Origin: an uncultured Gammaproteobacteria bacterium
Lineage (GTDB): Bacteria; Patescibacteriota; Patescibacteriia; UBA1558; GWA2-36-10
NCBI GenBank assembly: GCA_964638415.1
Contig: CAZWYP010000001.1
Location: 148,650 to 212,649 of the forward strand
Direction: 5' to 3'
Length of the DNA stretch: 64,000 nucleotides
A program made the position numbers and the translations under genes. Under the pieces are notes generated by a model, which saw nothing but the letters and a program-made list of their open reading frames with translations, made no database searches and had not been told where the DNA came from. Below are positions 47,793 to 62,899 of the stretch, one piece after another. How positions within the stretch are numbered: the first letter of the stretch is position 1; each line of letters begins with the position of its first letter.

Positions 47793-49097
47793 ATGAAAAA
47801 AATAAAGTTTTATTTTTTCTTATTACTGATTTCTTTATTAGTACTCTGGCCGGTGATTGGCTTGTATTTTAATGGGAGCTGGCAGGGAATGTTTGCTTCC
47901 TGGGTTAGCTTGTCTAATGCTGCGGGAAAAATTTTAGGCTTAATTGGTCTAGCTACTTTTTCCTTAGGCTTAATCTTATCTGCCCGCTTTGTTTGGATGG
48001 ATAAATTATTATCTGATTTTACCAAGATCTTGAAAGTCCATCGCTGGCTGGGGGTTATTTCTTTTTCTTTTATTCTTTTTCATCCTTTATTATTAGCTTT
48101 CAGCTTACTGCCGGCTTCCAGCCAATATGCCTGGGGACTGTTTTGGACTTGGTCCGATGCTTCTCTAGTCTTTGGTTATCTGGCTCTCTTATTATTCATG
48201 CTGCTAGTCTTGATGACTTTTTTCTGGCGCTTGCAATATGAACGCTTAAAAATGCTGCATAGCCTATTAGCTGTGCCTTTGATGCTGGGGGGTATTCATG
48301 CTTTGTTAATCGGCAGTGATGTTAAAGCACATGCTTGGCTGGCTTGGTATTATATAATTTTAATTTCTTTGGGAGTTTTGGCTTACCTTTGGCGCATCTA
48401 TACTGTTTCCTGGGGGATTAAAAGCAAGCAGTATATTATTGATGCTATTTCTCAACCGACGCCGCAAACCGTTAAAATTACTTTCCGCCCTAAAGCCAAA
48501 AGCTTAGCTGTCCAGGCTGGCCAGTTTATCTTTGTCAGCTTTGAGCAATTAGGAAAAGCTGAAGAGCATCCGTTCTCCGTGGCTGGCATTGATCAGGATA
48601 AGATAACTATTGTTGCCAAAGCTTTAGGAGATTTTACCCAGAGGTTAGCCACGCTTAAGGTTAATAGTCTAGCCATGATTGACGGCCCTTATGGTTCTTT
48701 CGGTCAAGTCAGTGAGCGCTACAAGCATCAGGTGTGGATTGCTGGCGGTATCGGCATTACACCGTTCTTAAGCTTAGCTCAGGAGTTTGCCAAGAATAAT
48801 AAACCTAATGATAAAGTGGATTTAATTTATGCCGTAGCCAAGTCTGCAGACTTTGTAGGTCTAGATAAATTAGAGCAACTAGCCAAAGCCTATCCGCAGT
48901 TTAGAGTTATCCCTTATGTTAGTGAAGAGCAGGGTAGATTAGATGTTAACCAGATTAAAAAAATAACCAATGATTTTACTGACTGTGTTTTTTGCTTATG
49001 CGGACCGCAGGGTATGGTAGCCAGCTTAGTGGCTCAGCTGAAGAAAGCTTCTATTCCCAAATCTCGTATTAATATTGAAGCTTTTGAATTATTGTAA
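47793..49097 (+). CDS. NADPH-oxidase/ferric-reductase-family flavocytochrome (TM bis-His heme domain, FAD domain, NAD(P)H domain)
   Basis: Two His pairs spaced 13 apart in TM helices (HRWLGVISFSFILFHP; HSLLAVPLMLGGIHA), HPFS FAD motif, GGIGITPF NAD motif, C-terminal CGP. Confidence 0.75.
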   Translation: MKKIKFYFFLLLISLLVLWPVIGLYFNGSWQGMFASWVSLSNAAGKILGLIGLATFSLGLILSARFVWMDKLLSDFTKILKVHRWLGVISFSFILFHPLLLAFSLLPASSQYAWGLFWTWSDASLVFGYLALLLFMLLVLMTFFWRLQYERLKMLHSLLAVPLMLGGIHALLIGSDVKAHAWLAWYYIILISLGVLAYLWRIYTVSWGIKSKQYIIDAISQPTPQTVKITFRPKAKSLAVQAGQFIFVSFEQLGKAEEHPFSVAGIDQDKITIVAKALGDFTQRLATLKVNSLAMIDGPYGSFGQVSERYKHQVWIAGGIGITPFLSLAQEFAKNNKPNDKVDLIYAVAKSADFVGLDKLEQLAKAYPQFRVIPYVSEEQGRLDVNQIKKITNDFTDCVFCLCGPQGMVASLVAQLKKASIPKSRINIEAFELL

Positions 49098-49101
49098 TTA
49101 T

Positions 49102-49566
49102 ATGAATAAGATTGTAATTATTGCCGTGTTTATTTTCTGGGCTATTGTCAGTTTTTTCTTTGTCCGGAGCTTATTTGATAAGCAACCTGAGGTTTTGCTT
49201 AATAGTACTAATAGCCAGTTGCCAGCAGAAGACGCTACTGGTCAGGCCTTCAGCGTTGATTTAGTAGCTCAGCACAATACTGCGGCTGACTGTTGGGTAA
49301 CTTATGGCAATACCGTTTATAACGTCACGGATTATCTCAACTCCCATCCTGGCGGTAGAGATCGCATTATTCCCTACTGTGGTTCAGACATTGCCGCTGC
49401 TTTTGCTGCTCAAGGACACTCTAATACTGCCACCAGTATTTTAAATGGTTTAGCTATTGGGACTATTGGTCAAATAATTTCTAATGATCCTAACACTATT
49501 ACTCCACCGCCGGTAAGTAACCCAAAGAAGGACGATGATGACGATGAAAAAGAAGATGATGATTAA
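49102..49566 (+). CDS. Membrane-anchored cytochrome b5-like heme-binding protein with an acidic tail
   Basis: HPGG motif (YLNSHPGG) and a second His in AQGHS; N-terminal TM; ORF 49075-49566, trimmed to ATG 49102. Confidence 0.7.
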   Translation: MNKIVIIAVFIFWAIVSFFFVRSLFDKQPEVLLNSTNSQLPAEDATGQAFSVDLVAQHNTAADCWVTYGNTVYNVTDYLNSHPGGRDRIIPYCGSDIAAAFAAQGHSNTATSILNGLAIGTIGQIISNDPNTITPPPVSNPKKDDDDDEKEDDD

Positions 49567-49570
49567 ATAA

Positions 49571-49600
49571 GATACCCTATAGTTTTATAGGGTATTTTTT
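49571..49600 (+). terminator. Intrinsic terminator GATACCCTATAGTTTTATAGGGTATTTTTT
   Basis: Palindrome plus T-run. Confidence 0.8.
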
Positions 49601-49623: not shown

Positions 49624-50616
49624 ATGAATAATAATAACGAGCAAACAGCCTATTTGACTAATAAGTCAAAAACACACAAGTTAATTATATTTTTTTTGCT
49701 ATTAACCAATATTTTTACTGGGGGATGGTTTTTTATTTACCAAAAAGATCATCTAATAAACCCAAAAGAATACCCGTACATAGATGTTACTAGAAGTTTA
49801 ATTCCCCAGGAGCATTTTGTGGTTAATTTGGAGCCGCTTAGAGAAAGCTTAGATCAATTAGTTAAAGATTTTGGCGAAGATTCAGTGTCCATTTATATAG
49901 AATTTTTAAATACTGGAGCTAATATTTCAATTAATAAAGATAATTATATTTGGCCAGCTAGTTTAACTAAACTTCCGGTAGCTATGGCGACAATGAAAAA
50001 GATTGAGAAAGGGGAATGGGAATTTAATAATGAACTGGTTTTAACAAGAGAAGATGTAAATCAATTTTCCGGGGATGCTAAGGATCCCTTATCTGAATAT
50101 CCGGTGGGCAGCAGATTTACTATTCGCAAACTTTTGGAGGAATTATTAATAAATTCTGATAATACTGCTTATTATATTTTACTTCGCAATATTCATGAAG
50201 ATGAGCTGAAAGAAGTAATTTTAAATATCGGAATTGAAACATTATTTTCTCCTTCCGGCCAGATTTCATCCAAAGAATATTCCAGAATCTTTAGGGCTTT
50301 ATACACTTCCAGTTTTTTAAAGAGAGAAAACTCCCAGTATTTATTGGAAATATTAGATCAATCTGTCTTTGATGAATTTTTATCTGGCGCTGTGGCAAAA
50401 GAAATTCCTTTTCCCCATAAATATGGGCAAGATGACAAGAACAAGGCTTATTCTGATTCGGGTATAGTATATTTGCCATACCGACCTTATATAATTACGG
50501 TGATGGTACAGGGCGATCAGAATGAATCTTTTGAAAGTGAAAAAACCAAGGCGGCAGATTTTATGAATAAAGTTTCTCAGATTACTTACGAATATTTTTC
50601 TCTACAGACTAAATAA
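49624..50616 (+). CDS. Class-A beta-lactamase-like serine hydrolase, membrane-anchored
   Basis: SxxK (ASLTK), SDN (NSDNTAY), K(T/Y)G (HKYGQD) motifs; N-terminal TM. Confidence 0.65.
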   Translation: MNNNNEQTAYLTNKSKTHKLIIFFLLLTNIFTGGWFFIYQKDHLINPKEYPYIDVTRSLIPQEHFVVNLEPLRESLDQLVKDFGEDSVSIYIEFLNTGANISINKDNYIWPASLTKLPVAMATMKKIEKGEWEFNNELVLTREDVNQFSGDAKDPLSEYPVGSRFTIRKLLEELLINSDNTAYYILLRNIHEDELKEVILNIGIETLFSPSGQISSKEYSRIFRALYTSSFLKRENSQYLLEILDQSVFDEFLSGAVAKEIPFPHKYGQDDKNKAYSDSGIVYLPYRPYIITVMVQGDQNESFESEKTKAADFMNKVSQITYEYFSLQTK

Positions 50617-50618
50617 TT

Positions 50619-53600
50619 ATGTCGAAGAAGATAAAAAATATTATTAGGATATTTTCAATTACTTTTGTTTCTTTTATTTTTTTATTGACTAATGTTTTTA
50701 GCGGGCTAACCAGCTGGTTTTACGAGTATCTTAAAAACAGCAATATAGTAGATATATTATGGCAGGCTCAGCACAGTAAATCCGTAGTGGATAATTTCTT
50801 AAAGGATAACTTAACCGTAAGGCAGACTTCTGCAGCAGAAATAACAATTGAATCGGATACTACTGATGCTACTTTTGAGTACGGCACTTCTCCAGCGGTA
50901 GTCTTTACTACTGATCAGATTGGCTATGTTTTTTTTGTTGACGCTGGCAATGATCTGGTCTACAGAAAAACTACTAATGGGGGTACTAATTGGGCAGCAC
51001 CGACGATCATAGACAATGTAGTGACTGGCTGGGTTTCAGTTGCTGTTTGGTATGACCAATGGACTCCCGGAGATAGTAGTAATACCAAGATTCATATTGC
51101 TGCTTCCGATAATGCTTCTGACGATATTTTTTATACTTACTTGGACACTAACGGAGATAATCTAAAGGGTAGCGTGGTAACGGCAGTGTCGGGCTCAGCC
51201 ACTTTAACTGCTGGCGCTGACGGCCCACCCAGCATTACCAAAGGCGCTGGTGGAGCATTATTTGTATCAGGTAATTTCACCAGCACTGCCGGAGGCAAGG
51301 TTTCTAAGTCAACGGACGGCGCTGGAGATAGTTGGTCCGATGTCACTCCTTCCGGCTGGAGTTCAGTAGCAATTGACCAGATCCAATTATTACCTCTTTT
51401 AACTGGAGATGACATCATAGCGATTAAAGCAGAAACTGCTAATAATGCCATAAAATACCAAATTTACGATGAAACCAATGATCAATGGCCAGCCTCCTGG
51501 AGTAATATTGCTACACTAACCGAAAACACCACCTATGATCAATGGTTTTCCGCTACCATCAAGAAATCCACTGGCGATGTTTATCTGACTTTTGCTAATC
51601 AGACAGCCAATGCTGCTAATGATATTGAATTCTGGAGCTTTGATGAAAGTAATAGGGGTAGTGGCTTTGTGAAAGGCACTAACAATGTTTATGATAACAG
51701 CAATTTGATTATTTCCCCAGTGCCCTTAACAGATGAAAATACTGGAGATATTTATGTGGCGTATATCAGTGGAAGAATTCAAGGAACGATAGGTGCGGTA
51801 ACTCATGTGTTTTATAAAAAATCTACTGACGGCGGCAATACCTGGAGTAATGAATACGGTAATATCAATAACGATGTTGGTGATGACTACCGTTATTTGA
51901 GAGGCAATTTATTAAGTAGTGATCGCTTGTTTATTATTTATCACGATGATGATGACAATGATATACTTGGTACTACGATTGAGTCTCAGGATACTACCGT
52001 TGAAGCCAATGTAGATACTGCCATTATTGATGCTACGGATGAATATGGGCCATCACCATCAGGGGTGTTCACTACGGAAGATGTTGGTTATAAATTTTTT
52101 GTAAAAACCAATACTGTTTTGGATGGCACTGATGAATTTGGCCCATCACCGTCAGTGGTTTTTACAGATGCTAATACTGGCTATGCTTTTTTTGTTAGCG
52201 CTGTTAATCAGGATTTAGTTTACGCCAAGACGATTAATGGCGGAGCCAATTGGAGCGGACAAGTGATAATTGATTCAGCAGTTGGTGGCTGGACAATGGC
52301 TTCTGTCTGGTACGATCAGTGGACGCCGGGGGATACTACTGGAACCAAGATTCACATTGCTGCTTCTGATGATGTGTCTGATGACATTTACTATACTTAT
52401 CTGGATACTAATGGTGATACTTTGAAGGGTAGCGTGGTAACGGCGGTTTCAGGGTCAACTACTTTAACGGAAGCAAGCGACGGTCCACCCAGCATTACCA
52501 AAGGCGCTGGTGGGGCATTATTTGTATCAGGCAATTTCACCAGCACTGCTGGAGGCAAAGTTTCTAAGTCAACGGACGGTGCTGGAGATAGTTGGTCCGA
52601 TGTCACTCCTTCGGGCTGGAGCTCAGTAGCAATTGACCAAATACAACTACTGCCGTTGTTAACTGGAAATGATATTATGGCGATTAAAGCCCAGACGGCA
52701 GATAACACTATTAGATACCAAATTTACGACGAAACTAATGATCAATGGCCAGCCTCCTGGACTAATATTGCCACTTTAACTGAGAACCTTACCTATTACC
52801 AATGGTTTTCTGCTACCATCAAGAAATCCACTGGTGATGTTTATCTGACTTTTGCCAATCAGACAGCTAATGCTGCTAATGATATTGAATTCTGGAGCTT
52901 TGATGAAAGTAATAGGGGCAGTGGTTTTGTTCAAGGTGCTAATATATTTACTGATAATGCCACCGTTATTTCCCCAGTCCCTATCATAGAAGAAGATACG
53001 GGTAATATTTATGTAGCTTATATCAGAGGCACGTTAAATGCTACCGTGAGGGTTTATTATAAAAGCTCAACTGACGGCGGAGCTAATTGGGGCAGTGAGT
53101 CGTCCAGTGTTAGTCCGACTACTGCTGATGATCATAAGTACTTAAGAGGAAATATTCTTAACAATGATACTTTATATGTCGTTTGGTACAATGACGATAC
53201 TAATATCCTAAGGGGGAACTCTCTTTTGTCACCAATCGCTACTGATGTGCCTTTGACCGGTCAGTCCATAGCTTTTAGAAAGACTACCACCGGCGGGGCT
53301 GCTTGGGGGACTTTGCGTATTTTAGCACCAGGTTTAGGCGCCACCATGGTTTCTGTCTGGTATGATCGATGGACGCCTGGGGACACCACTGGAACCAAGA
53401 TCCATGTTGTTTATTCTGATGATGTGACTGATGATTATTATTATACTTATTTAGATACCAATGGCGATGAGATTGGCTTTAATAAACCAGTAATTTTAGG
53501 ATCAGCTATTACTGAGTTGGGTGTCGGTACGCCAGGTATTACCAAAGGCGCTGGGGGAGCTTTATTTTTATCTGGTCAATTTAATACTACTGCCGGAGGC

Positions 53601-54686
53601 AAAGTATATAAGTCGGTCAATGGTGGAGACACCTGGTCCGATGTTACTCCTTCCGGTTGGAGCTCAGTAGCAATTGACCAGATCCAATTATTACCGCTTT
53701 TAACTGGAGATGACATTATGGCTATCAAAGCCCAGACAGCAGATGATACTATTAGATACCAAATTTACGATGAAACCAATGATCAATGGCCTGATTCTTG
53801 GACTAGTATTGCTACACTAACCGAAAACACTACCTATGACCAATGGTTTTCCGCTACCATCAAGAAATCCACTGGCGATGTTTATCTGACTTTTGCTAAT
53901 CAGACGGCCAATGCTGCTAATGATATTGAATTCTGGAGCTTTGATGAAAGTAATAGGGGCAGTGGCTTTGTGAAGGGCACCAATAATGTTTATGATAATA
54001 GCAACGTTATTCTTTCCCCCATAACTTTAATTGATGAAAATAATGGTAATTTATATGTGGCTTATTTACGAGGCACTCTGGAAAATAATATGGGGGTGTA
54101 TTACAAGACTTCCACTGACGGCGGGGACACCTGGAGCGCAGAATCAGCTAATTTAGGTCCAGGCTTGGTTGATGATCATAAGTATCTACACAGCACCTTA
54201 TTGAGCGGAGATAGGCTTTATATATTTTGGTATAACGATGATTTAGAGGATATTATGGGTAATACCATTCCATTTTTGGTGGCAGCGGAAATATCAATTA
54301 CTTTATCTACCGATGGTTCCATTTCTTTTGGCGGACTCTCTTTAGAAGCAGTTGAAGACACTACTGCTGGAGGAATTAATGATGTGGAAACGATTAATGT
54401 GGATTCAGGCCCAGTTGATTTGGATATTAGAAGTACAACGTGGTCTGAAGGGGCTAATATTTGGACCCTAGGCAATGATAGTGCGGATAATCAGGTATTA
54501 TGGGAATTCTCTCCCAATGGCAGCTCTTGGTCAACTTTTCTAGTGGCTGATAATTTATATAATTTGGCAACCAATGTTTCTCAAGGTAATAGTCAGAATG
54601 TCTATTTCCGTCTTAGTATGCCCACGATTACTGACTCTTATCAGGAATACAGCGCTGATGTTACTATAGTAGCCTCTAGTCCCTAA
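50619..54686 (+). CDS. Giant cell-surface protein (1355 aa) with an N-terminal TM anchor, three tandem ~420-aa modules carrying Asp-box/BNR motifs (SxDxGxTW), and a distinct C-terminal domain
   Basis: Asp-box motifs KSTDGGNTWS, SSTDGGANWG, TSTDGGDTWS, TTNGGTNWA, TINGGANWS, SVNGGDTWS; near-identical nucleotide repeats. Confidence 0.75.
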   Translation: MSKKIKNIIRIFSITFVSFIFLLTNVFSGLTSWFYEYLKNSNIVDILWQAQHSKSVVDNFLKDNLTVRQTSAAEITIESDTTDATFEYGTSPAVVFTTDQIGYVFFVDAGNDLVYRKTTNGGTNWAAPTIIDNVVTGWVSVAVWYDQWTPGDSSNTKIHIAASDNASDDIFYTYLDTNGDNLKGSVVTAVSGSATLTAGADGPPSITKGAGGALFVSGNFTSTAGGKVSKSTDGAGDSWSDVTPSGWSSVAIDQIQLLPLLTGDDIIAIKAETANNAIKYQIYDETNDQWPASWSNIATLTENTTYDQWFSATIKKSTGDVYLTFANQTANAANDIEFWSFDESNRGSGFVKGTNNVYDNSNLIISPVPLTDENTGDIYVAYISGRIQGTIGAVTHVFYKKSTDGGNTWSNEYGNINNDVGDDYRYLRGNLLSSDRLFIIYHDDDDNDILGTTIESQDTTVEANVDTAIIDATDEYGPSPSGVFTTEDVGYKFFVKTNTVLDGTDEFGPSPSVVFTDANTGYAFFVSAVNQDLVYAKTINGGANWSGQVIIDSAVGGWTMASVWYDQWTPGDTTGTKIHIAASDDVSDDIYYTYLDTNGDTLKGSVVTAVSGSTTLTEASDGPPSITKGAGGALFVSGNFTSTAGGKVSKSTDGAGDSWSDVTPSGWSSVAIDQIQLLPLLTGNDIMAIKAQTADNTIRYQIYDETNDQWPASWTNIATLTENLTYYQWFSATIKKSTGDVYLTFANQTANAANDIEFWSFDESNRGSGFVQGANIFTDNATVISPVPIIEEDTGNIYVAYIRGTLNATVRVYYKSSTDGGANWGSESSSVSPTTADDHKYLRGNILNNDTLYVVWYNDDTNILRGNSLLSPIATDVPLTGQSIAFRKTTTGGAAWGTLRILAPGLGATMVSVWYDRWTPGDTTGTKIHVVYSDDVTDDYYYTYLDTNGDEIGFNKPVILGSAITELGVGTPGITKGAGGALFLSGQFNTTAGGKVYKSVNGGDTWSDVTPSGWSSVAIDQIQLLPLLTGDDIMAIKAQTADDTIRYQIYDETNDQWPDSWTSIATLTENTTYDQWFSATIKKSTGDVYLTFANQTANAANDIEFWSFDESNRGSGFVKGTNNVYDNSNVILSPITLIDENNGNLYVAYLRGTLENNMGVYYKTSTDGGDTWSAESANLGPGLVDDHKYLHSTLLSGDRLYIFWYNDDLEDIMGNTIPFLVAAEISITLSTDGSISFGGLSLEAVEDTTAGGINDVETINVDSGPVDLDIRSTTWSEGANIWTLGNDSADNQVLWEFSPNGSSWSTFLVADNLYNLATNVSQGNSQNVYFRLSMPTITDSYQEYSADVTIVASSP
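51167..54010 (+). repeat. Three tandem intragenic repeats; core ~530-nt segments (about 51170-51700, 52430-52960, 53470-54000) are near-identical; period ~1260 and ~1040 nt
   Basis: Landmarks ATTACCAAAGGCGCTGG (51235/52494/53540) and TTCTGGAGCTTTGATGAAAGTAATAGGGG (51631/52891/53929). Confidence 0.85.
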
Positions 54687-54763
54687 GTAATTTTATTTAT
54701 GGGTCTTGTTTATGTGGCAAGTTGTGTTATAATATAAGCATTAAAAATAAACATAATAAAAAT

Positions 54764-55270
54764 ATGAAACAAAGTATTATAAGTATTTCTTTTGTAATCT
54801 TAGTCGGGTTATTTATCACCCTAGTTTCCCAAGCTGCAGATAATGCTACGGTAACCGCTACGGTAACTGCGCAGAATATAGCAATATCAGTAGCTGATGG
54901 ATCAATAACTTATGGCACTATAGCCTTAGGTGGGGCAGCTTCAACAACAGCTGACAGCATTAATGACAGTCAGACCGTTACTAATGACGGTAATATCACC
55001 TCCGATCTTGATATCCGGGGACAGAATACCGCTGCTTGGACTTTGGCGGGAAGTTCTGGAGCTGATCAGTATATTCACCAGTTTTGTGGAGAAGCTAATT
55101 GTGATTCCGCACCAGTTTGGACAGCTTTAACCACTAGTTACCAGGCTTTGGCTACTAGTATTGCCGCTGCCGGCACCAAGGTTTTTGATTTAAAGATTAC
55201 TTTACCTGCCTCTAGTAGCAGTTATACTCAGCAGTCCGTAGATGTTACTGTCTTAGCTTCCGCTTCTTAA
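54764..55270 (+). CDS. Secreted protein paralogous to the C-terminal domain of the giant protein
   Basis: Shared pattern IS..DGSI..G...L....TTA..IND..T...D....DLDIR...WTL...S.ADQ... and C-terminal SVDVTVLASAS versus SADVTIVASSP; extended -10 TGTTATAAT at 54725-54733. Confidence 0.6.
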   Translation: MKQSIISISFVILVGLFITLVSQAADNATVTATVTAQNIAISVADGSITYGTIALGGAASTTADSINDSQTVTNDGNITSDLDIRGQNTAAWTLAGSSGADQYIHQFCGEANCDSAPVWTALTTSYQALATSIAAAGTKVFDLKITLPASSSSYTQQSVDVTVLASAS

Positions 55271-55286
55271 AATTTTTACGATATTA

Positions 55287-55889
55287 ATGAAAAAAAGATT
55301 TACTTATTTTCTTATTGCTGTTTTTCTATTGATTCCAGGTTTATCGCTGGCTAAAATGGGAGTAGGTGTTGGTACCGGCAAAATCGTTATGGATCAGGAA
55401 TTAAAAGCTGGCACCTACCATAATTTGCCGGCTTTAACGGTGATTAATACCGGAGATGAGCCAGCGGATTATGGAGTTTCAGTATCTCATCGTGAGAATC
55501 AGCCAGAACTAAAACCTAATGCTGAGTGGTTTACTTTTTCTCCTAATAGTTTTCATCTTGATCCGGGGCAAGCTCAGAGAGTAGAAATCAAGGTAAATTT
55601 ACCAATAAAAATACAGCCCGGCGATTATTTCGCATTTTTGGAAGCACATCTTAATAATAGCAATCAAGACGCTTCCAAAACCAGCATTGGCATCGCCGCT
55701 GCTAGCAAGCTTTATTTTACAGTAGCCCCTTCCAATTTTATTCAGGGCATATATTATCGGATAATTTCATTTATATTCTATTATCGCCCTTGGACATACA
55801 TAGTCCCGATTGTAATATTTTTGGCTATTTTGATTACAATTTTCAGGAAAAAGTTTGTTTTTAATATTAGCATTGGTAAAAAACAATAG
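55287..55889 (+). CDS. Hypothetical surface protein (N-terminal signal, C-terminal TM anchor)
   Basis: ORF and hydropathy. Confidence 0.5.
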   Translation: MKKRFTYFLIAVFLLIPGLSLAKMGVGVGTGKIVMDQELKAGTYHNLPALTVINTGDEPADYGVSVSHRENQPELKPNAEWFTFSPNSFHLDPGQAQRVEIKVNLPIKIQPGDYFAFLEAHLNNSNQDASKTSIGIAAASKLYFTVAPSNFIQGIYYRIISFIFYYRPWTYIVPIVIFLAILITIFRKKFVFNISIGKKQ

Positions 55890-55894
55890 TTTTA

Positions 55895-56941
55895 ATGATT
55901 GTTTCCAAAGCCAAAATTTTTCTTTTCCTATTCCCTCTATTGTTAGTGGGAATATTTTTTGTAGCTAAGTTTGTTATTGCTCAATCTTACAATATTGATG
56001 CTCAGGTTAGAATCAGTGTTTGTGGTAACGGTGACGCTGAAGGTGGTGAAGAATGTGATGGAGCTGATTTTAATGGCTTAAGCTGCTCTAACTTTGGTTT
56101 TAGCTCTGGTAATTTAACTTGTGATATCGCTTGTGATATTGATGCCAGTGATTGCCGGAACACTACTGGCGGAGGAGGCGGTGGCGGAGGAGGCGGTGGT
56201 GGCGGCGGGGGAATTCCCCCGGTGCAGACTAGTGTTACTTTTTCCGGCCGGGCTTATCCGCAAAGCGAAGTCACTATTTTAAAAGACGGCCAGATTGCCA
56301 TAACTACTATTGCCGGCCCAGACGCTAATTTTTATGTATCATTAACTGGCTTGGCGGCGGGTAATTATAATTTTGCTGTTTATAGTGAAGACAGTGATAA
56401 TCGCCGCTCAACTCTTTTTACTTTCCCTGTATATATTACTGCTGGCGCTACCACCAATATTAGCGGTATTTATATCGCCCCTACCATTGCCGTAGATAAA
56501 AGTCAGGTTAGGCGCGGGGATAACATAGCTATTTTCGGCCAAACTGTGCCTAGTGCTAATGTGACTATTTCAGTTCATTCCAACCCAGAATATTTCCGTT
56601 ACATTATTGCTGACGAAGATGGTGTTTATTTGCATAATTTTGATACTTCAATTTTGGCTCAAGGCGGCCATAATACAAAATCTAAATCCGCAATAACTGG
56701 AGAAATCAGCTCTTTTGGTCAAACAGTAGGTTTTACCGTGGGTGAAGACAATGTGCCGGCAGAGGAAACAAATGATTTGCCAGCAGATGTTAATAATGAT
56801 AATAAGGTTAATTTAATTGATTTTTCCGTGGCCGCTTACTGGTATGGCCGGGCAAATCCTCCGGCTAATGTCGATCTTAATAAGGATGGCAAAGTGAATT
56901 TAGTTGATTTTAGTATCATGGCTTATCATTGGACTGGTTAA
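55895..56941 (+). CDS. Membrane-anchored protein with a Cys-rich module, a 29-residue poly-Gly linker, Ig-like region and a C-terminal type-I dockerin (two Ca-binding repeats)
   Basis: DVNNDNKVNLIDFSVAAYW and DLNKDGKVNLVDFSIMAYHW fit the D-x-N-x-D-x-x-x-N-x-x-D dockerin consensus exactly. Confidence 0.75.
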   Translation: MIVSKAKIFLFLFPLLLVGIFFVAKFVIAQSYNIDAQVRISVCGNGDAEGGEECDGADFNGLSCSNFGFSSGNLTCDIACDIDASDCRNTTGGGGGGGGGGGGGGGIPPVQTSVTFSGRAYPQSEVTILKDGQIAITTIAGPDANFYVSLTGLAAGNYNFAVYSEDSDNRRSTLFTFPVYITAGATTNISGIYIAPTIAVDKSQVRRGDNIAIFGQTVPSANVTISVHSNPEYFRYIIADEDGVYLHNFDTSILAQGGHNTKSKSAITGEISSFGQTVGFTVGEDNVPAEETNDLPADVNNDNKVNLIDFSVAAYWYGRANPPANVDLNKDGKVNLVDFSIMAYHWTG

Positions 56942-59926: not shown

Positions 59927-60106
59927 ATGTTTGGCTTAGGAAACAGGGAAATAATCATCATTGCTATTGTGCTAGTATTGTTGTTTGGAGCGAAAAAAAT
60001 ACCAGAATTGGCTAAGAATATTGTGGAAGCCTTCAAACATTTAACCAGTGTTTTCAAGGATGATTCTTCCCAGTCTAAAGATAAATTGACGGAAAATAAA
60101 AAATAA
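59927..60106 (+). CDS. tatA: Twin-arginine translocase subunit TatA/E (59 aa; below the 60-aa ORF-track cutoff)
   Basis: MFGLGNREIIIIAIVLVLLFGAKKIPELAKNIVEAFKHL: TM helix, FG hinge, amphipathic helix as in TatA. Confidence 0.8.
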   Translation: MFGLGNREIIIIAIVLVLLFGAKKIPELAKNIVEAFKHLTSVFKDDSSQSKDKLTENKK

Positions 60107-60121
60107 AAATAAACTGCGAAC

Positions 60122-60739
60122 TTGATGCTTGTCTCGCGCTATTCTTTTAAATTTTTGTCGCGGGCGGAAGTAAGGAATATCCGCCAGTCTTTGTATCCCG
60201 CTAAAGCCGATACAGCTAATGCTTCAGCAGCAGTAAGAGATGAGAGCAAGCGTTCTTTTCTCAAGCTAGCCGGTTTAGTTGGCTTGGGAGTATTTACCTC
60301 TTCTTTAATACCCAAAAAAGCCAAGGCTTTAGTTTTTGGCTCCACGCCTGCTTCCAATGTGGTAGGCGTCAAGAATGAGAGCGATGTCAGAATTAATCCG
60401 GCTACGGAGGAAACTCTCGGCTCGTTATTAACTGGTCAGGAAGTCAATAAATTGTCTACCAGTTTGTCTTCTTCAGGCAATGTGTTAGTGCCGGCTTCTG
60501 GCAAGAAAATTAGAGTGTATAGCACTCGTTTTTCTTTAACCGCTGATCTTACTTCAGTTTCTTTCCGCTTTACTTCCGGCGGCACTGACCACGAAAAATA
60601 TGTCAGTCCTAAAACTGGGGGCCTGTATGGCGCTAATAACCACCCTAATTTCGTAGAAGGCGGCATTGATGAAGCTTTATATTGCGTTATTTCCGGCACC
60701 GGCACTGTGCAAATTAATATTGATTATTTAGAAATATAA
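60122..60739 (+). CDS. Hypothetical exported protein with a KR-type twin-arginine-like signal (SKRSFLKLAGLVGLGVF...AKA)
   Basis: Matches the S/T-R-R-x-F-L-K consensus with a K-R variant, an h-region and AxA; directly downstream of tatA. Confidence 0.5.
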   Translation: MMLVSRYSFKFLSRAEVRNIRQSLYPAKADTANASAAVRDESKRSFLKLAGLVGLGVFTSSLIPKKAKALVFGSTPASNVVGVKNESDVRINPATEETLGSLLTGQEVNKLSTSLSSSGNVLVPASGKKIRVYSTRFSLTADLTSVSFRFTSGGTDHEKYVSPKTGGLYGANNHPNFVEGGIDEALYCVISGTGTVQINIDYLEI

Positions 60740-60751
60740 TAAAAAAATACT

Positions 60752-62899
60752 ATGGCCAAAAGAGTAGTTGAACATGTTTTCACCGGTGCAACAGTTTCTT
60801 ATACCGCTTATGATTCCACTAAAACAGTTCTAGGTGAAATGATCCAGCAGCAGACTGGCGCTAATCCCAAAGATAAATATGCCGGACCAATGCCCATTGG
60901 TTTAGCTAGGCCAATGGAAGCTGGTACTGCGATCTCCAGTGCCTATCCTCACGCCATTACTTTCAGTGATGATTTGATTTGGGTATTTTTGGCGGAAATC
61001 AGTACGGCGGCAGCAACTAGAAAAATTAGTGCTTATTCTTTCACTAAATCTACTAATGTTTTTGATTGGTTAGGTTATATTACCTTGACTTTCCCTCCTA
61101 ACACAGCTCATACCGTTCGTGGATTTCGTGTGAGTCGCGAACTTTATACCACCGGTACAGCATCAGCTAGCGGCACGGCTGTAACGGGAACTGGCACCGC
61201 TTGGTCAGCGAGTTTATTAGCAGCAGGCTGTCGGATAGGATTTGGATCAGCTGATCCTACCCAAATTACCACTTGGTACGAAATTTCCTCCATTGGAGGT
61301 GACACCTCTATTACTTTAACGGCCACAGCTGGCACAGTGGTTGATGGCCCCTATGTTATTGAAGATTTGCGAGCAGTAGTTTCAACAACTAATGCCACTT
61401 TAACTAATGGTGGTTTATTTGTAGCAAAGGGTTTAAGAATTGAAAACTTTAATAGCTCTGGAACAACCATTCCGGCCGCTACCACTACTGACAATATCCG
61501 AGCGGTTTATTGGCTGGCTGACGCTGCCACAGTTACCAATACCATTGCTTGCGGTTGCGCCATTGATGATAAAGTCTCTTGGACCGAGCAATACGTTTAT
61601 ATTATTGATGGTACTACTACGACTTGCCGGGTTTACAAATATAATATTAGAGCATCGCTTACCTCTTTATCTTCAGGTAAAAGTACAGCCGCTTGGTCTT
61701 TGACTACGGGAGCGCAAACTCCAACCGGCACGGTGTCCCAAGCTAATAATGGAAGAATTGGTGCTTTGAATCATAATCCAGATGCCGGCACTAAATTTTT
61801 ATATTTTGTTTCAACCACGCGTGTTCTCAGGGCTTTAGTCAGCGGTTTGACTAGTGGTAATACTTCTTGGCAGACTGACACAATGATGGAAGTCCCGCCT
61901 GGCGGATCCTCGACTTTTACGGTCAGCGGCGCCCTGTCTTCTTGCGAAATTTCCAGCATTATCGATCGTTTGGTGATTGTCAGCACTGGTGCAGCTAGCC
62001 AGCGCGGTTATGTGACTAAATTTTATACCGATGGTTCCAATTTTGATCACATTTTCTTAGTTGATGATAAACAGCTGGATCAGAGCTCAGCTGACAGCGG
62101 CGGAGTCACGCACCCGGGAATTTCGACCTCAGCTTTTTCTATTTGGTCAGAGCAAGGCATATTGTTTCTTTGTCGAGGCACTACTTCCGCTACTTCCAAT
62201 CAGTTATACAGTATGCCACTCGGTGCTCATTGGACTTATGCCGGTAATGCCGTAAAACAGCGTTTGATTACTCCGGTCTTAGCTTTGCCAGACATCTCGT
62301 CCTTCGGTAGAATTTTTGTTAATGCCGCTGTGCAATTAGGCAGCGGCACGATGGGTTTACCACCGGAGCCTTATCGTGTTTATTATCGGACCGAAGGTAT
62401 TGATGATGATAGTGGTGATTGGACGCTAATTTCTCAGCACGCGACTGCCGGTGATACTATGGATTTAAGCTCGGTTAGCGCGACTTCGCAAATTCAATTA
62501 ATGTTTGAATTTAAAACAATTGGAGGATATTGTATTCCCGCCAGAATTTACAGTTGTGGAGTAATTTATGAAGATAACACTACAGATTCTCATTATCAAC
62601 CATCAGTTGGTCAATCATCAATAACCAATAAATATTTTGCCTGGAGATTTTCCACCGCTTTTGGTTCTACAGTGCCGACCCTAACCATTAAATTATATGA
62701 TGCTGTTACTGCAGGTTTATTATTAACCGATGATACTGCCAGCCAAGCTAATGGAACTTTTGAAAAGAGTACTGATGGTGGGCAAAGTTGGGGAGCTTAT
62801 AATACCACCGACAAAGCTAATGAAACAACCTATATCCGTTATACGCCCAGTTCTTTGGCTGACAATATTAAAGTTAGAGCTTTACTAACTAGAGTTTAA
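60752..62899 (+). CDS. Large hypothetical Thr/Gly/Ser-rich beta-rich protein (715 aa), no N-terminal signal, GC-rich
   Basis: ORF only. Confidence 0.5.
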   Translation: MAKRVVEHVFTGATVSYTAYDSTKTVLGEMIQQQTGANPKDKYAGPMPIGLARPMEAGTAISSAYPHAITFSDDLIWVFLAEISTAAATRKISAYSFTKSTNVFDWLGYITLTFPPNTAHTVRGFRVSRELYTTGTASASGTAVTGTGTAWSASLLAAGCRIGFGSADPTQITTWYEISSIGGDTSITLTATAGTVVDGPYVIEDLRAVVSTTNATLTNGGLFVAKGLRIENFNSSGTTIPAATTTDNIRAVYWLADAATVTNTIACGCAIDDKVSWTEQYVYIIDGTTTTCRVYKYNIRASLTSLSSGKSTAAWSLTTGAQTPTGTVSQANNGRIGALNHNPDAGTKFLYFVSTTRVLRALVSGLTSGNTSWQTDTMMEVPPGGSSTFTVSGALSSCEISSIIDRLVIVSTGAASQRGYVTKFYTDGSNFDHIFLVDDKQLDQSSADSGGVTHPGISTSAFSIWSEQGILFLCRGTTSATSNQLYSMPLGAHWTYAGNAVKQRLITPVLALPDISSFGRIFVNAAVQLGSGTMGLPPEPYRVYYRTEGIDDDSGDWTLISQHATAGDTMDLSSVSATSQIQLMFEFKTIGGYCIPARIYSCGVIYEDNTTDSHYQPSVGQSSITNKYFAWRFSTAFGSTVPTLTIKLYDAVTAGLLLTDDTASQANGTFEKSTDGGQSWGAYNTTDKANETTYIRYTPSSLADNIKVRALLTRV

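Follow-up and report, generated by a model that had tools for sequence, protein, structure and literature searches.

An old triple-propeller surface protein with a constant C-terminal domain points to a widespread putative display system in Patescibacteria

WxL clusters of Firmicutes, including the csc clusters of Lactiplantibacillus plantarum, encode a small WxL protein, a large protein with a C-terminal WxL domain and an immunoglobulin (Ig)-like membrane protein, WxLIP, built as DUF916–DUF3324–transmembrane helix (PMC9772566, PMC10599100), and in AlphaFold2 (AF2) predictions a hairpin from the Ig-like partner is inserted into the domain (PMC10599100). TasA and AbpA are secreted β-rich subunits that form usher-free polymers by means of N-terminal donor strands and are encoded beside an anchoring protein; homologues of TasA have been reported in Patescibacteria (PMC9245690). 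Here we analyse a 64,000-nt stretch (the window) of contig CAZWYP010000001.1 in assembly GCA_964638415.1, a member of the Patescibacteria, in which the gene for a 1355-amino-acid (aa) surface protein with three β-propeller modules (U1, U2 and U3) and a C-terminal domain is followed by genes for a small subunit carrying the same domain, a 200-aa Ig-like membrane protein, a dockerin protein and cohesin-like proteins. WxL clusters have the closest described gene logic, and chaperone–usher pili (FimA/FimH/FimC, PapA/PapG/PapD) provide a further comparison; judged from sequence, the tail of the 1355-aa protein and its neighbours would work like WxL clusters or pilus tip adhesins, yet they lack defining features of both. 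The protein itself is a new member of the Asp-box (BNR) propeller kind, with a clear record of partial concerted evolution.

The explanation of the whole to which we give somewhat more credence than doubt is that of an old triple-propeller surface protein, in which the variable cargo binds glycans and is attached to a scaffold by strand complementation. The leader would target the 1355-aa protein to the envelope, where the propellers, as the variable cargo, would most likely be multivalent binders, and possibly cleavers, of surface glycans of a partner cell. The C-terminal domain would be the constant part, attaching the cargo non-covalently to an envelope scaffold built from the small subunit, and the membrane-anchored Ig-like protein would hold this scaffold at the membrane. 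Attachment would most likely proceed by β-strand complementation between this domain, the small subunit and the Ig-like protein, an idea that we infer from the distribution of an N-terminal extension, a strand left unpaired in the monomer model of the small subunit, fold matches to pilins, weak PapD-type Ig matches and the analogy with WxL clusters. Judged likewise from sequence, the tail domain and the downstream genes appear to form a widespread, unannotated display system of Patescibacteria.

The C-terminal domain holds a constant position on proteins that otherwise differ. An exhaustive search with aa 1224–1355 returned 290 cluster representatives at E ≤ 1e-3, and among the best 149, which we examined, the domain lies within five residues of the C terminus in 141 of the 146 representatives with a domain hit. 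These carriers span 66–1802 aa (median 466), and only 4 of the 149 contain the propeller module. This position on many different proteins marks the domain as a constant module for varied heads. Compared with the C termini of unrelated cargo proteins in three other loci (L003, L066 and L067), the domain of the window protein is 45–68% identical, and conservation among the cargo proteins starts only at ‘VSISLtTDGsVxFG’; PHROGs gave no match for the domain.

Many cargo proteins (P0236, P0237, P0239, P0246, P0249–P0253, P0259 and others, together with L067 5943–7904 and L068 4876–7353) also have a common N-terminal leader, in which ‘W(I/L)FSGWPxIWxxPxxPPxIxxAxA’ comes after a membrane helix. A second leader group, comprising the window protein, P0231 and P0267, has ‘...NIVDxxW..xHSxxVVDNF’ instead, and both types may be dedicated sorting signals. 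The orthologues P0002 and P0231 have a leader like that of the window protein, the hydrophobic helix of which we read as a signal anchor or signal peptide.

The genes downstream of the 1355-aa protein recur as a conserved operon. The order of cargo gene, small subunit (52–61% identical to that of the window), ~200-aa protein, dockerin protein and one or two cohesin-like proteins is found in Roizmanbacteria, a Komeilibacteria-type genome, Minisyncoccales and one further genome (L067), with cargo proteins of 323, 468, 653 and 825 aa that have unrelated N-terminal domains and the shared domain at the C terminus. WWE3 (L034) encodes a 730-aa cargo protein and a small subunit, these being the two genes examined there. 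The 200-aa protein has 545 homologues and is 47–54% identical in every operon examined. Dockerin_1 matches the 348-aa protein, which is conserved in L003, L066, L067 and L068, at 30.4 bits, over its cut-off of 22.9; Cohesin matches the two cohesin-like proteins at 18.0 and 22.9 bits, under the cut-off of 24.1, and Big_13 scores 50.8 bits. The gene for the 348-aa protein also contains, at 56167–56199, a perfect 15-nt tandem repeat coding for a run of ~15 glycines that separates the Cys-rich N-terminal region from the Ig/dockerin part. A literature search of incomplete coverage found no description of the operon in Patescibacteria, which is weak evidence of novelty.

As the initial annotation had proposed, the gene next to that of the 1355-aa protein encodes a stand-alone copy of its C-terminal domain (31% identity over 139 aa, E = 3e-15, to the last ~130 aa), and the anchoring role suggested for it fits the genomic context. 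We detected 278 homologues of this small subunit, ~170 aa in length; the 120 listed come from Roizmanbacteria, Komeilibacteria, WWE3, Minisyncoccales and unclassified Patescibacteria and are 49–75% identical, besides one identical protein (P0109). Immediately after the AxA cleavage site follows a nearly invariant N-terminal extension with the consensus ‘AAtTAtVTATVTvQN’, which 103 small subunits retain and 57 cargo proteins lack, a pattern at the level of sequence. The AF2 model of the small subunit (predicted local distance difference test (pLDDT) 92) is a β-sandwich of about eight strands in which the extension is unpaired, and DSSP assigns no strand before residue 41. We consider the extension a candidate donor strand. 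In the 77-nt gap before the small-subunit gene (54687–54763) lies an extended −10-like element, TGTTATAAT (~54726–54734), which could be a promoter of its own, and a stronger one, for the small subunit; it is a consensus match only. Promoter and terminator scans gave background levels only.

The propellers were examined through U2, the module chosen for structure prediction. Its AF2 model, built from an alignment of 108 homologues, is all-β with 27 strands (pLDDT 90.3, predicted template-modelling score (pTM) 0.91), and Foldseek against the Protein Data Bank (PDB) returned propellers exclusively (597 hits at E ≤ 1e-3), bearing out the earlier description of the modules as β-propellers. The top PDB matches are seven-bladed members of glycoside hydrolase (GH) and polysaccharide lyase (PL) families, GH145 (5mul), PL25 ulvan lyase (5uas) and PL42 (7esn), with GH33 sialidases next, and from these and the strand count the module is probably seven-bladed. 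Its best structural matches came from predicted viral structures (BFVD), with template-modelling (TM) scores of 0.66–0.73 to Bacillus phage G proteins Gp424, Gp425 and Gp427 (0.71–0.73 for Gp425 and Gp427). The repeated SxDxGxTW Asp-boxes on which the earlier description drew are present, but just one per unit is a strict S-x-D-x-G-x-T-W (three in total, at aa 402, 817 and 1165). Two degenerate motifs accompany it in each unit: a T-x-N-x-G-x-x-W variant and one with a one-residue insertion (S-T-D-G-A-G-D-S-W) in both U1 and U2, and S-V-N-G-G-D-T-W and a T-T-G-G-A-A-W variant in U3. In the blades of sialidases, the Asp-box lies between strands 3 and 4. Each Asp-box-like motif of U2 immediately follows a predicted strand (E38–43, E152–156 and E314–322), and this placement, at turns that follow strand 3 of a blade in the model, fits that arrangement.

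Family databases recognize the module poorly. Pfam matched BNR_2 only, at 23.3 bits and under the gathering cut-off of 31.4, and a minority of homologues have precomputed PF13088 or PF02012 matches; NCBIfam gave nothing useful, PHROGs gave no match, and a sequence search of the PDB gave chance-level matches only, with no sequence-related solved structure. Searching with the sequence of U2, we found 108 homologues, nearly all with a single module, and 82 of them are leaderless proteins that start with ‘MAD[VI]’ and are mostly ~400–670 aa long (one is a 277-aa fragment). One such homologue (P0011) is encoded on 33–40-kb phage contigs just downstream of the portal gene, between the terminase and portal genes and other virion-region genes, and another (P0060) on a phage-like contig. 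By sequence, the module is thus common to phage virion-region proteins and cellular surface proteins, which lends indirect support to a function in surface-glycan recognition or cleavage; ligand binding by the propellers is suggested by the predicted fold and these relatives. The phage contigs with P0011 also code for sugar-modifying enzymes (L149 10001–11206; L150 10001–12019). The window protein differs from the phage proteins in its signal anchor, its three modules and its place in a cellular surface operon, with no adjacent phage genes. We rejected a prophage origin of the gene in view of the signal anchor, the surface-protein neighbours and the finding of no phage-like gene among the flanking genes examined. 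In five single-module relatives scanned with Pfam, the only additional matches were Peptidase_C25, DUF11 and PATR, all in proteins from outside the candidate phyla radiation (CPR). Very large proteins from such non-CPR genomes (L031 9746–13843, Pyrinomonadaceae; L023 2815–13290, Kiritimatiellae) join the module to a gingipain-like Peptidase_C25 domain at the C terminus.

To place the triplication, we compared the gene with its relatives across species. A scan of one genome per species yielded 59 related loci, which we parsed with a hidden Markov model (HMM) of the module. Three-module orthologues at 56–62% identity occur in Patescibacteria RA.bin35 (L007, 1387 aa), L008 (1552 aa), L009 (1324 aa) and Dojkabacteria (L010, 1584 aa); other relatives have two modules (L011–L015 and L019–L021) or four (L018 and L026), and most have one. 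The four three-module orthologues and a further protein (P0231, 1354 aa) have the same layout as the window protein: a full module, ~45 aa including a duplicated partial blade, a second full module, and a third that matches the HMM only from column 32–34. The duplicated segment between U1 and U2 is present in the fragment P0002 too, which at 54% identity has the same U1–linker–U2 junction. A layout common to other species implies that the triplication predates them and makes an assembly artefact very unlikely; sequence comparison shows the triplication to be old, with an origin before the divergence of at least four other species-level genomes. Several metagenome-assembled genomes (MAGs) with close orthologues (L008, L009, L014, L018 and others) bear the titles ‘uncultured Gammaproteobacteria’, ‘Syntrophus sp.’ or ‘Pseudomonadales’. 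These record names may be wrong, given that the MAGs closest to them belong to Patescibacteria. Orthologues in which the C-terminal domain was not recognized (L008 9998–14653, L010 9878–14629 and L013 9977–13807) end in other β-rich tails with ‘(I/V)x(F/Y)G(S/T)L’ near the start of the final segment, and a ‘YRxFxNxxSTDVGSAL...FRLRxLLH’ domain is common to the tails of L008 and L013 and occurs also in P0001, P0014 and L068. These alternative endings could be remote variants of a single attachment principle.

Within the gene, the three units have not diverged evenly. The open reading frame (ORF) is present and intact, and it contains three direct repeats, as described earlier, but the units are unequal, with start-to-start distances of 1260 nt and then 1041–1050 nt. 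Nor are they near-identical: codon-aligned DNA identity is only 71–72% (832/1149, 735/1035 and 729/1032), blastn aligns U1 and U2 at 84% over 730 nt, U1 and U3 at 86% over 532 nt and U2 and U3 at 79% over 752 nt, and the longest exact run common to any pair is 50–65 nt. The ~530-nt cores that had been called almost identical correspond to a core of ~450 nt with 77–98% identity per 20-codon bin, and 93–100% DNA identity is reached only in a sub-block of ~126 nt (51546–51671, 52806–52931 and 53847–53972). Tandem Repeats Finder was silent on the gene because its longest period is 500. Synonymous divergence (dS) is saturated in the flanks (1.5–2.9) and falls to 0.52–0.84 in the core, with a ratio of non-synonymous to synonymous divergence (dN/dS) of 0.07–0.12, and to 0.08–0.33 in the sub-block, which has zero amino acid changes.

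Comparison across genomes shows how this unevenness arose. In the core (HMM columns 125–270), protein identity is 87–90% between the paralogues of the window, against a mean of ~63% between orthologues at the same position. In the flanks, modules that correspond in position are 60–64% identical across genomes on the N-terminal side and 50–61% on the C-terminal side, and paralogues within a genome are 37–60% identical, with the exception of the N-terminal flank of U1 and U2 (60–74%). Neighbour-joining trees (100 bootstraps) group the flanks by position (U3 clade, 90% bootstrap) and the cores by genome (window U1+U2+U3, 97%; L007 U1+U3, 99%; L008 U1+U3, 100%; L010 U1+U2, 100%), and the conversion tracts form a pair-specific mosaic. 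Flanks that group by position and cores that group by genome point to recurrent gene conversion within the gene. We read the sequences as recording an old triplication followed by repeated, lineage-specific conversion of the central ~450 nt (roughly blades 3–5), while the outer blades kept diverging. Such a course differs from a recent duplication and from a single recent event; of the two histories offered by the initial annotation, concerted evolution is borne out by the regional identities, the trees and the dS mosaic, and very recent duplication is contradicted by the saturated flanks and by the four other species-level genomes that keep the layout, shortened third module included. The antisense ORFs of U1 and U2, which had been taken for mirror artefacts, do match in position and phase; comparable antisense stop-free stretches are present in L009 and L007 and not in L008 or L010, that is, two of four orthologues have no counterpart, and we read these ORFs as non-coding by-products of the sense repeat.

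Several observations weigh against the explanation that we favour. Three of the three-module orthologues (L007, L008 and L010) have other C-terminal tails and no small-subunit gene within 10 kb, so the propeller array is not tied to the attachment system, and head and attachment domain are independently shuffled. The small subunit and the 200-aa protein had nothing above threshold in Pfam, NCBIfam, PHROGs or PDB sequence searches, the last of which gave chance-level matches only with a profile of the small subunit and with two profiles of the 200-aa protein. Foldseek matches of the small-subunit model to the PDB all have E > 1e-3, with TM scores of 0.3–0.5, and profile comparison with hhalign gave probabilities of 1.8% for the small subunit against Escherichia coli FimA/I/F/G and 0.3% for the 200-aa protein against FimC. 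In the propeller, the conserved H84, D71, D77, D101, D105 and K133 could equally mark a catalytic or metal-binding site. As for the gene, two independent k=31 assemblies (SRR10064596 and SRR36307055) match the window at 100% identity from 53936 on, and both end in unit 3 exactly at that position, where a stretch without differences between U1 and U3 finishes; short-k assemblies are therefore broken by the repeat. The protein collection searched has no record of the exact 1355-aa product, the metagenome scan gave no relative closer than 62%, and support for the copy number in this genome has three sources only: the given assembly, the short exact repeats and the architecture of the orthologues.

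The attachment could take either of two specific forms, an usher-less donor-strand fibre with the 1355-aa protein as tip adhesin or a WxL-like wall platform. In the fibre, small subunits would polymerize head-to-tail, the extension of each entering the incomplete Ig-like fold of the next; the 1355-aa protein would cap the fibre like FimH or PapG, with the 200-aa PapD-like membrane protein serving as chaperone and as anchor of the base. Among the top 30 Foldseek matches of the small-subunit model, 23 are chaperone–usher pilus structures (PapA, FimA, FimF/G, PapE, the pilin domains of PapG and FimH, and Csu), which come first in the list; PapA (5flu) has E = 3e-3 and probability 0.99, and the pilins overall have probabilities of 0.9–0.99 and E values of 3e-3 to 0.1. 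The archaeal bundling pilin 7ueg, one point of likeness to TasA and AbpA fibres, follows at rank 36 (E = 0.09). The extension, nearly invariant and unpaired, sits on the pilin-type subunit and not on the adhesin; the conservation of the small subunit across distant lineages is as expected of a self-packing polymer; Pfam gives the 200-aa protein sub-threshold PapD_N matches in 4 of 5 members (best E = 0.0047), along with ASH, Cep192 and HYDIN Ig-like domains; and 2 of its 545 homologues are named ‘P pilus assembly chaperone PapD’ by the Joint Genome Institute (JGI). Fibres that assemble through donor strands and need no usher have precedents, among them TasA, AbpA and CanA (PMC9245690). However, the fold scores lie under usual significance (E ≥ 3e-3, TM ≤ 0.5), the Fim profile comparisons are negative, the extension is only ~9–12 residues longer than the cargo alignment, and the partner has a single, membrane-anchored Ig-like domain where PapD has two. 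The window operon moreover begins with the cargo gene, and its proteins have no match to the Usher or Fimbrial families; Peptidase_M73/TasA (PF12389) is not among the matches of the operon proteins (E ≤ 0.1) or of 118 small subunits (E ≤ 1), nor is a SipW-type peptidase found among the operon genes scanned. A fibre of this kind is a possible, if unlikely, form of the preferred explanation, and the fuller proposal of an undescribed usher-less donor-strand fibre with a ~170-aa pilin, a 200-aa chaperone and anchor and more than 100 interchangeable tip proteins for partner attachment seems to us doubtful. In the WxL-like form, the domain would bind peptidoglycan non-covalently and the Ig-like membrane protein would stabilize the small and large proteins, with no fibre. 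The gene logic is the same, with a domain-only small protein, a large protein with the domain at its C terminus and an Ig-like protein with a membrane helix (PMC9772566, PMC10599100), and W92-x-L94 is invariant in all 118 aligned small subunits, with IWTL in the 1355-aa protein. Yet the second defining WxL motif is absent from the small-subunit alignment, and WxL, DUF916 and DUF3324 are not among the Pfam matches listed at E ≤ 1 for any member. The partner has one Ig-like domain in place of DUF916 and DUF3324, dockerin and cohesin-like proteins are encoded instead of an LPxTG protein, and WxL clusters have been reported almost only in Bacilli (PMC9772566), not in Patescibacteria. We regard this form as rather doubtful.

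A different question is whether the propellers bind or cut. They could make the protein a surface glycoside hydrolase or polysaccharide lyase, with three catalytic modules that degrade partner or environmental glycans, as the GH145, PL25, PL42 and GH33 fold matches suggest and as the fusion of some non-CPR relatives to Peptidase_C25 would fit. Among the nearly invariant residues of the 108-sequence alignment (in U2 numbering, including W69, D71, D77, H84, D101, D105 and K133) are the His, Asp and Lys of the WYDxWTPGDxx(G/N)TKIH(I/V) and YTYLDTNGD (YLDTxxD) loops, which all three modules of the window keep. The same alignment has no Arg or Glu in its invariant or nearly invariant columns, so the sialidase catalytic set (Arg triad and Tyr/Glu pair) is absent from the module; what had been called sialidase- or glycosidase-like is so in its fold, but not in its catalytic residues. 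Identity to the solved structures is 10–14% at TM scores of 0.5–0.62, the Pfam BNR_2 match is under its cut-off, and tandem multiplication would be more typical of binding modules. We take the enzymatic reading seriously but think it unlikely. Far less probable, and in our view barely credible, is that the repeats stem from a recent tandem duplication or from an assembly artefact with the wrong repeat number. The shared break of the two short-k assemblies, where a stretch of 100% identity between U1 and U3 ends, and the missing record of the exact product, would fit it, but flank dS is saturated and even core dS is 0.5–0.8, exact common runs reach at most 65 nt, and the layout, with its shortened third module and partial blade, recurs in four independently assembled MAGs and P0231, with the U1–linker–U2 junction also in P0002. 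The worry that long repeats had distorted the copy number is thus mostly answered by the short exact repeats and the shared architecture, although the independent check of this very gene begins only at 53936. Table 1 gives the coordinates of the gene, its parts and the downstream genes.

Table 1. Coordinates in the window of the 1355-aa protein gene, its parts and the downstream genes
Feature	Position	Strand	Description
Gene for 1355-aa surface protein	50619–54686	+	Leader, three propeller modules and putative C-terminal attachment domain; from the ORF list and HMM domain parsing
N-terminal leader, aa 1–70	50619–50828	+	One hydrophobic helix at ~aa 9–28 (IRIFSITFVSFIFLLTNVFSG); read from the translation
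Propeller module U1, aa 71–465, complete	50829–52013	+	HMM columns 3–362, E = 6e-103
Homogenized core of U1	51231–51680	+	Counterparts at 52491–52940 (U2) and 53535–53981 (U3); from dS, identity and the core tree
Antisense ORF in U1	51137–51451	−	Twin at 52397–52708 in U2, exactly 1260 nt apart, in the same position and phase
Linker, aa 466–497 (IDATDEYGPSPSGVFTTEDVGYKFFV)	52014–52109	+	32-aa duplicated partial blade, a copy of the first strands of the module; motif positions 87, 475 and 506
Propeller module U2, aa 498–879, complete	52110–53255	+	Module used for the structure model
Propeller module U3, aa 880–1223	53256–54287	+	Without the first ~31–33 module-profile positions (~39 alignment columns); HMM match from column 33
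C-terminal β-sandwich domain, ~130 aa, aa 1224–1355	54288–54683	+	Putative attachment domain; paralogue of the small subunit, without its N-terminal extension
Small subunit, 168 aa	54764–55270	+	Signal peptide, conserved N-terminal extension, same domain as the C terminus of the 1355-aa protein
Mature N-terminal extension of the small subunit, aa 24–38 (AADNATVTATVTAQN)	54833–54877	+	Absent from cargo proteins
200-aa protein	55287–55889	+	Signal peptide, N-terminal segment with invariant GVGV..GKI, a single Ig-like domain and a membrane helix at the C terminus
348-aa protein	55895–56941	+	Cys-rich N-terminal region, Gly run, Ig domain, C-terminal dockerin; Big_6
Two cohesin-like proteins, 292 and 578 aa	56945–59560	+	Each with a C-terminal membrane helix; conserved in other operons

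The genes on either side of the operon add some observations of their own. Upstream, at 47793–49566, the gene for a NOX-like ferric reductase of 434 aa (Ferric_reduct, FAD_binding_8 and NAD_binding_1) overlaps the start of that for a secreted or membrane cytochrome b5-like protein ending in a poly-acidic tail (KKDDDDDEKEDDD), a redox pair unusual for a Patescibacteria genome. A serine hydrolase of the Beta-lactamase2 family with an N-terminal membrane helix (49624–50616) ends 2 nt before the 1355-aa protein gene and is preceded by a terminator-like hairpin (49569–49598); a gene 57–61% identical to it immediately precedes the one for the multi-propeller protein in L007, L008 and L013 and not in L009–L012 or L014. 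Downstream (59927–62899), a TatA-like gene of 59 aa (59927–60106) is followed by a gene for a 205-aa protein with a Tat-like KR signal and by one for a leaderless 715-aa protein (60752–62899) that has an Asp-box, KSTDGGQSWG, and is not among the module homologues. TatC lies further downstream in L001.

Patescibacteria are ultra-small, mostly symbiotic bacteria that are thought to live attached to other microbes, and to our knowledge their contact proteins beyond type IV pili are largely undescribed. The locus points to a widespread modular display in these organisms, in which a constant C-terminal domain, a very conserved small subunit and an Ig-like membrane protein accompany no fewer than 141 different N-terminal heads; models for the small subunit and for the 200-aa membrane protein are missing from both Pfam and NCBIfam. 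The triple propeller is also a clean natural case of an old internal triplication in which one segment has been repeatedly homogenized while its flanks diverged, and the pattern of conversion can be used to ask which blades must stay alike and which are free to change. If the strand-complemented scaffold or fibre is real, it would extend the pilus-adhesin logic of the chaperone–usher and WxL systems to the Patescibacteria radiation, and the cargo proteins would be a ready list of candidates for partner recognition.

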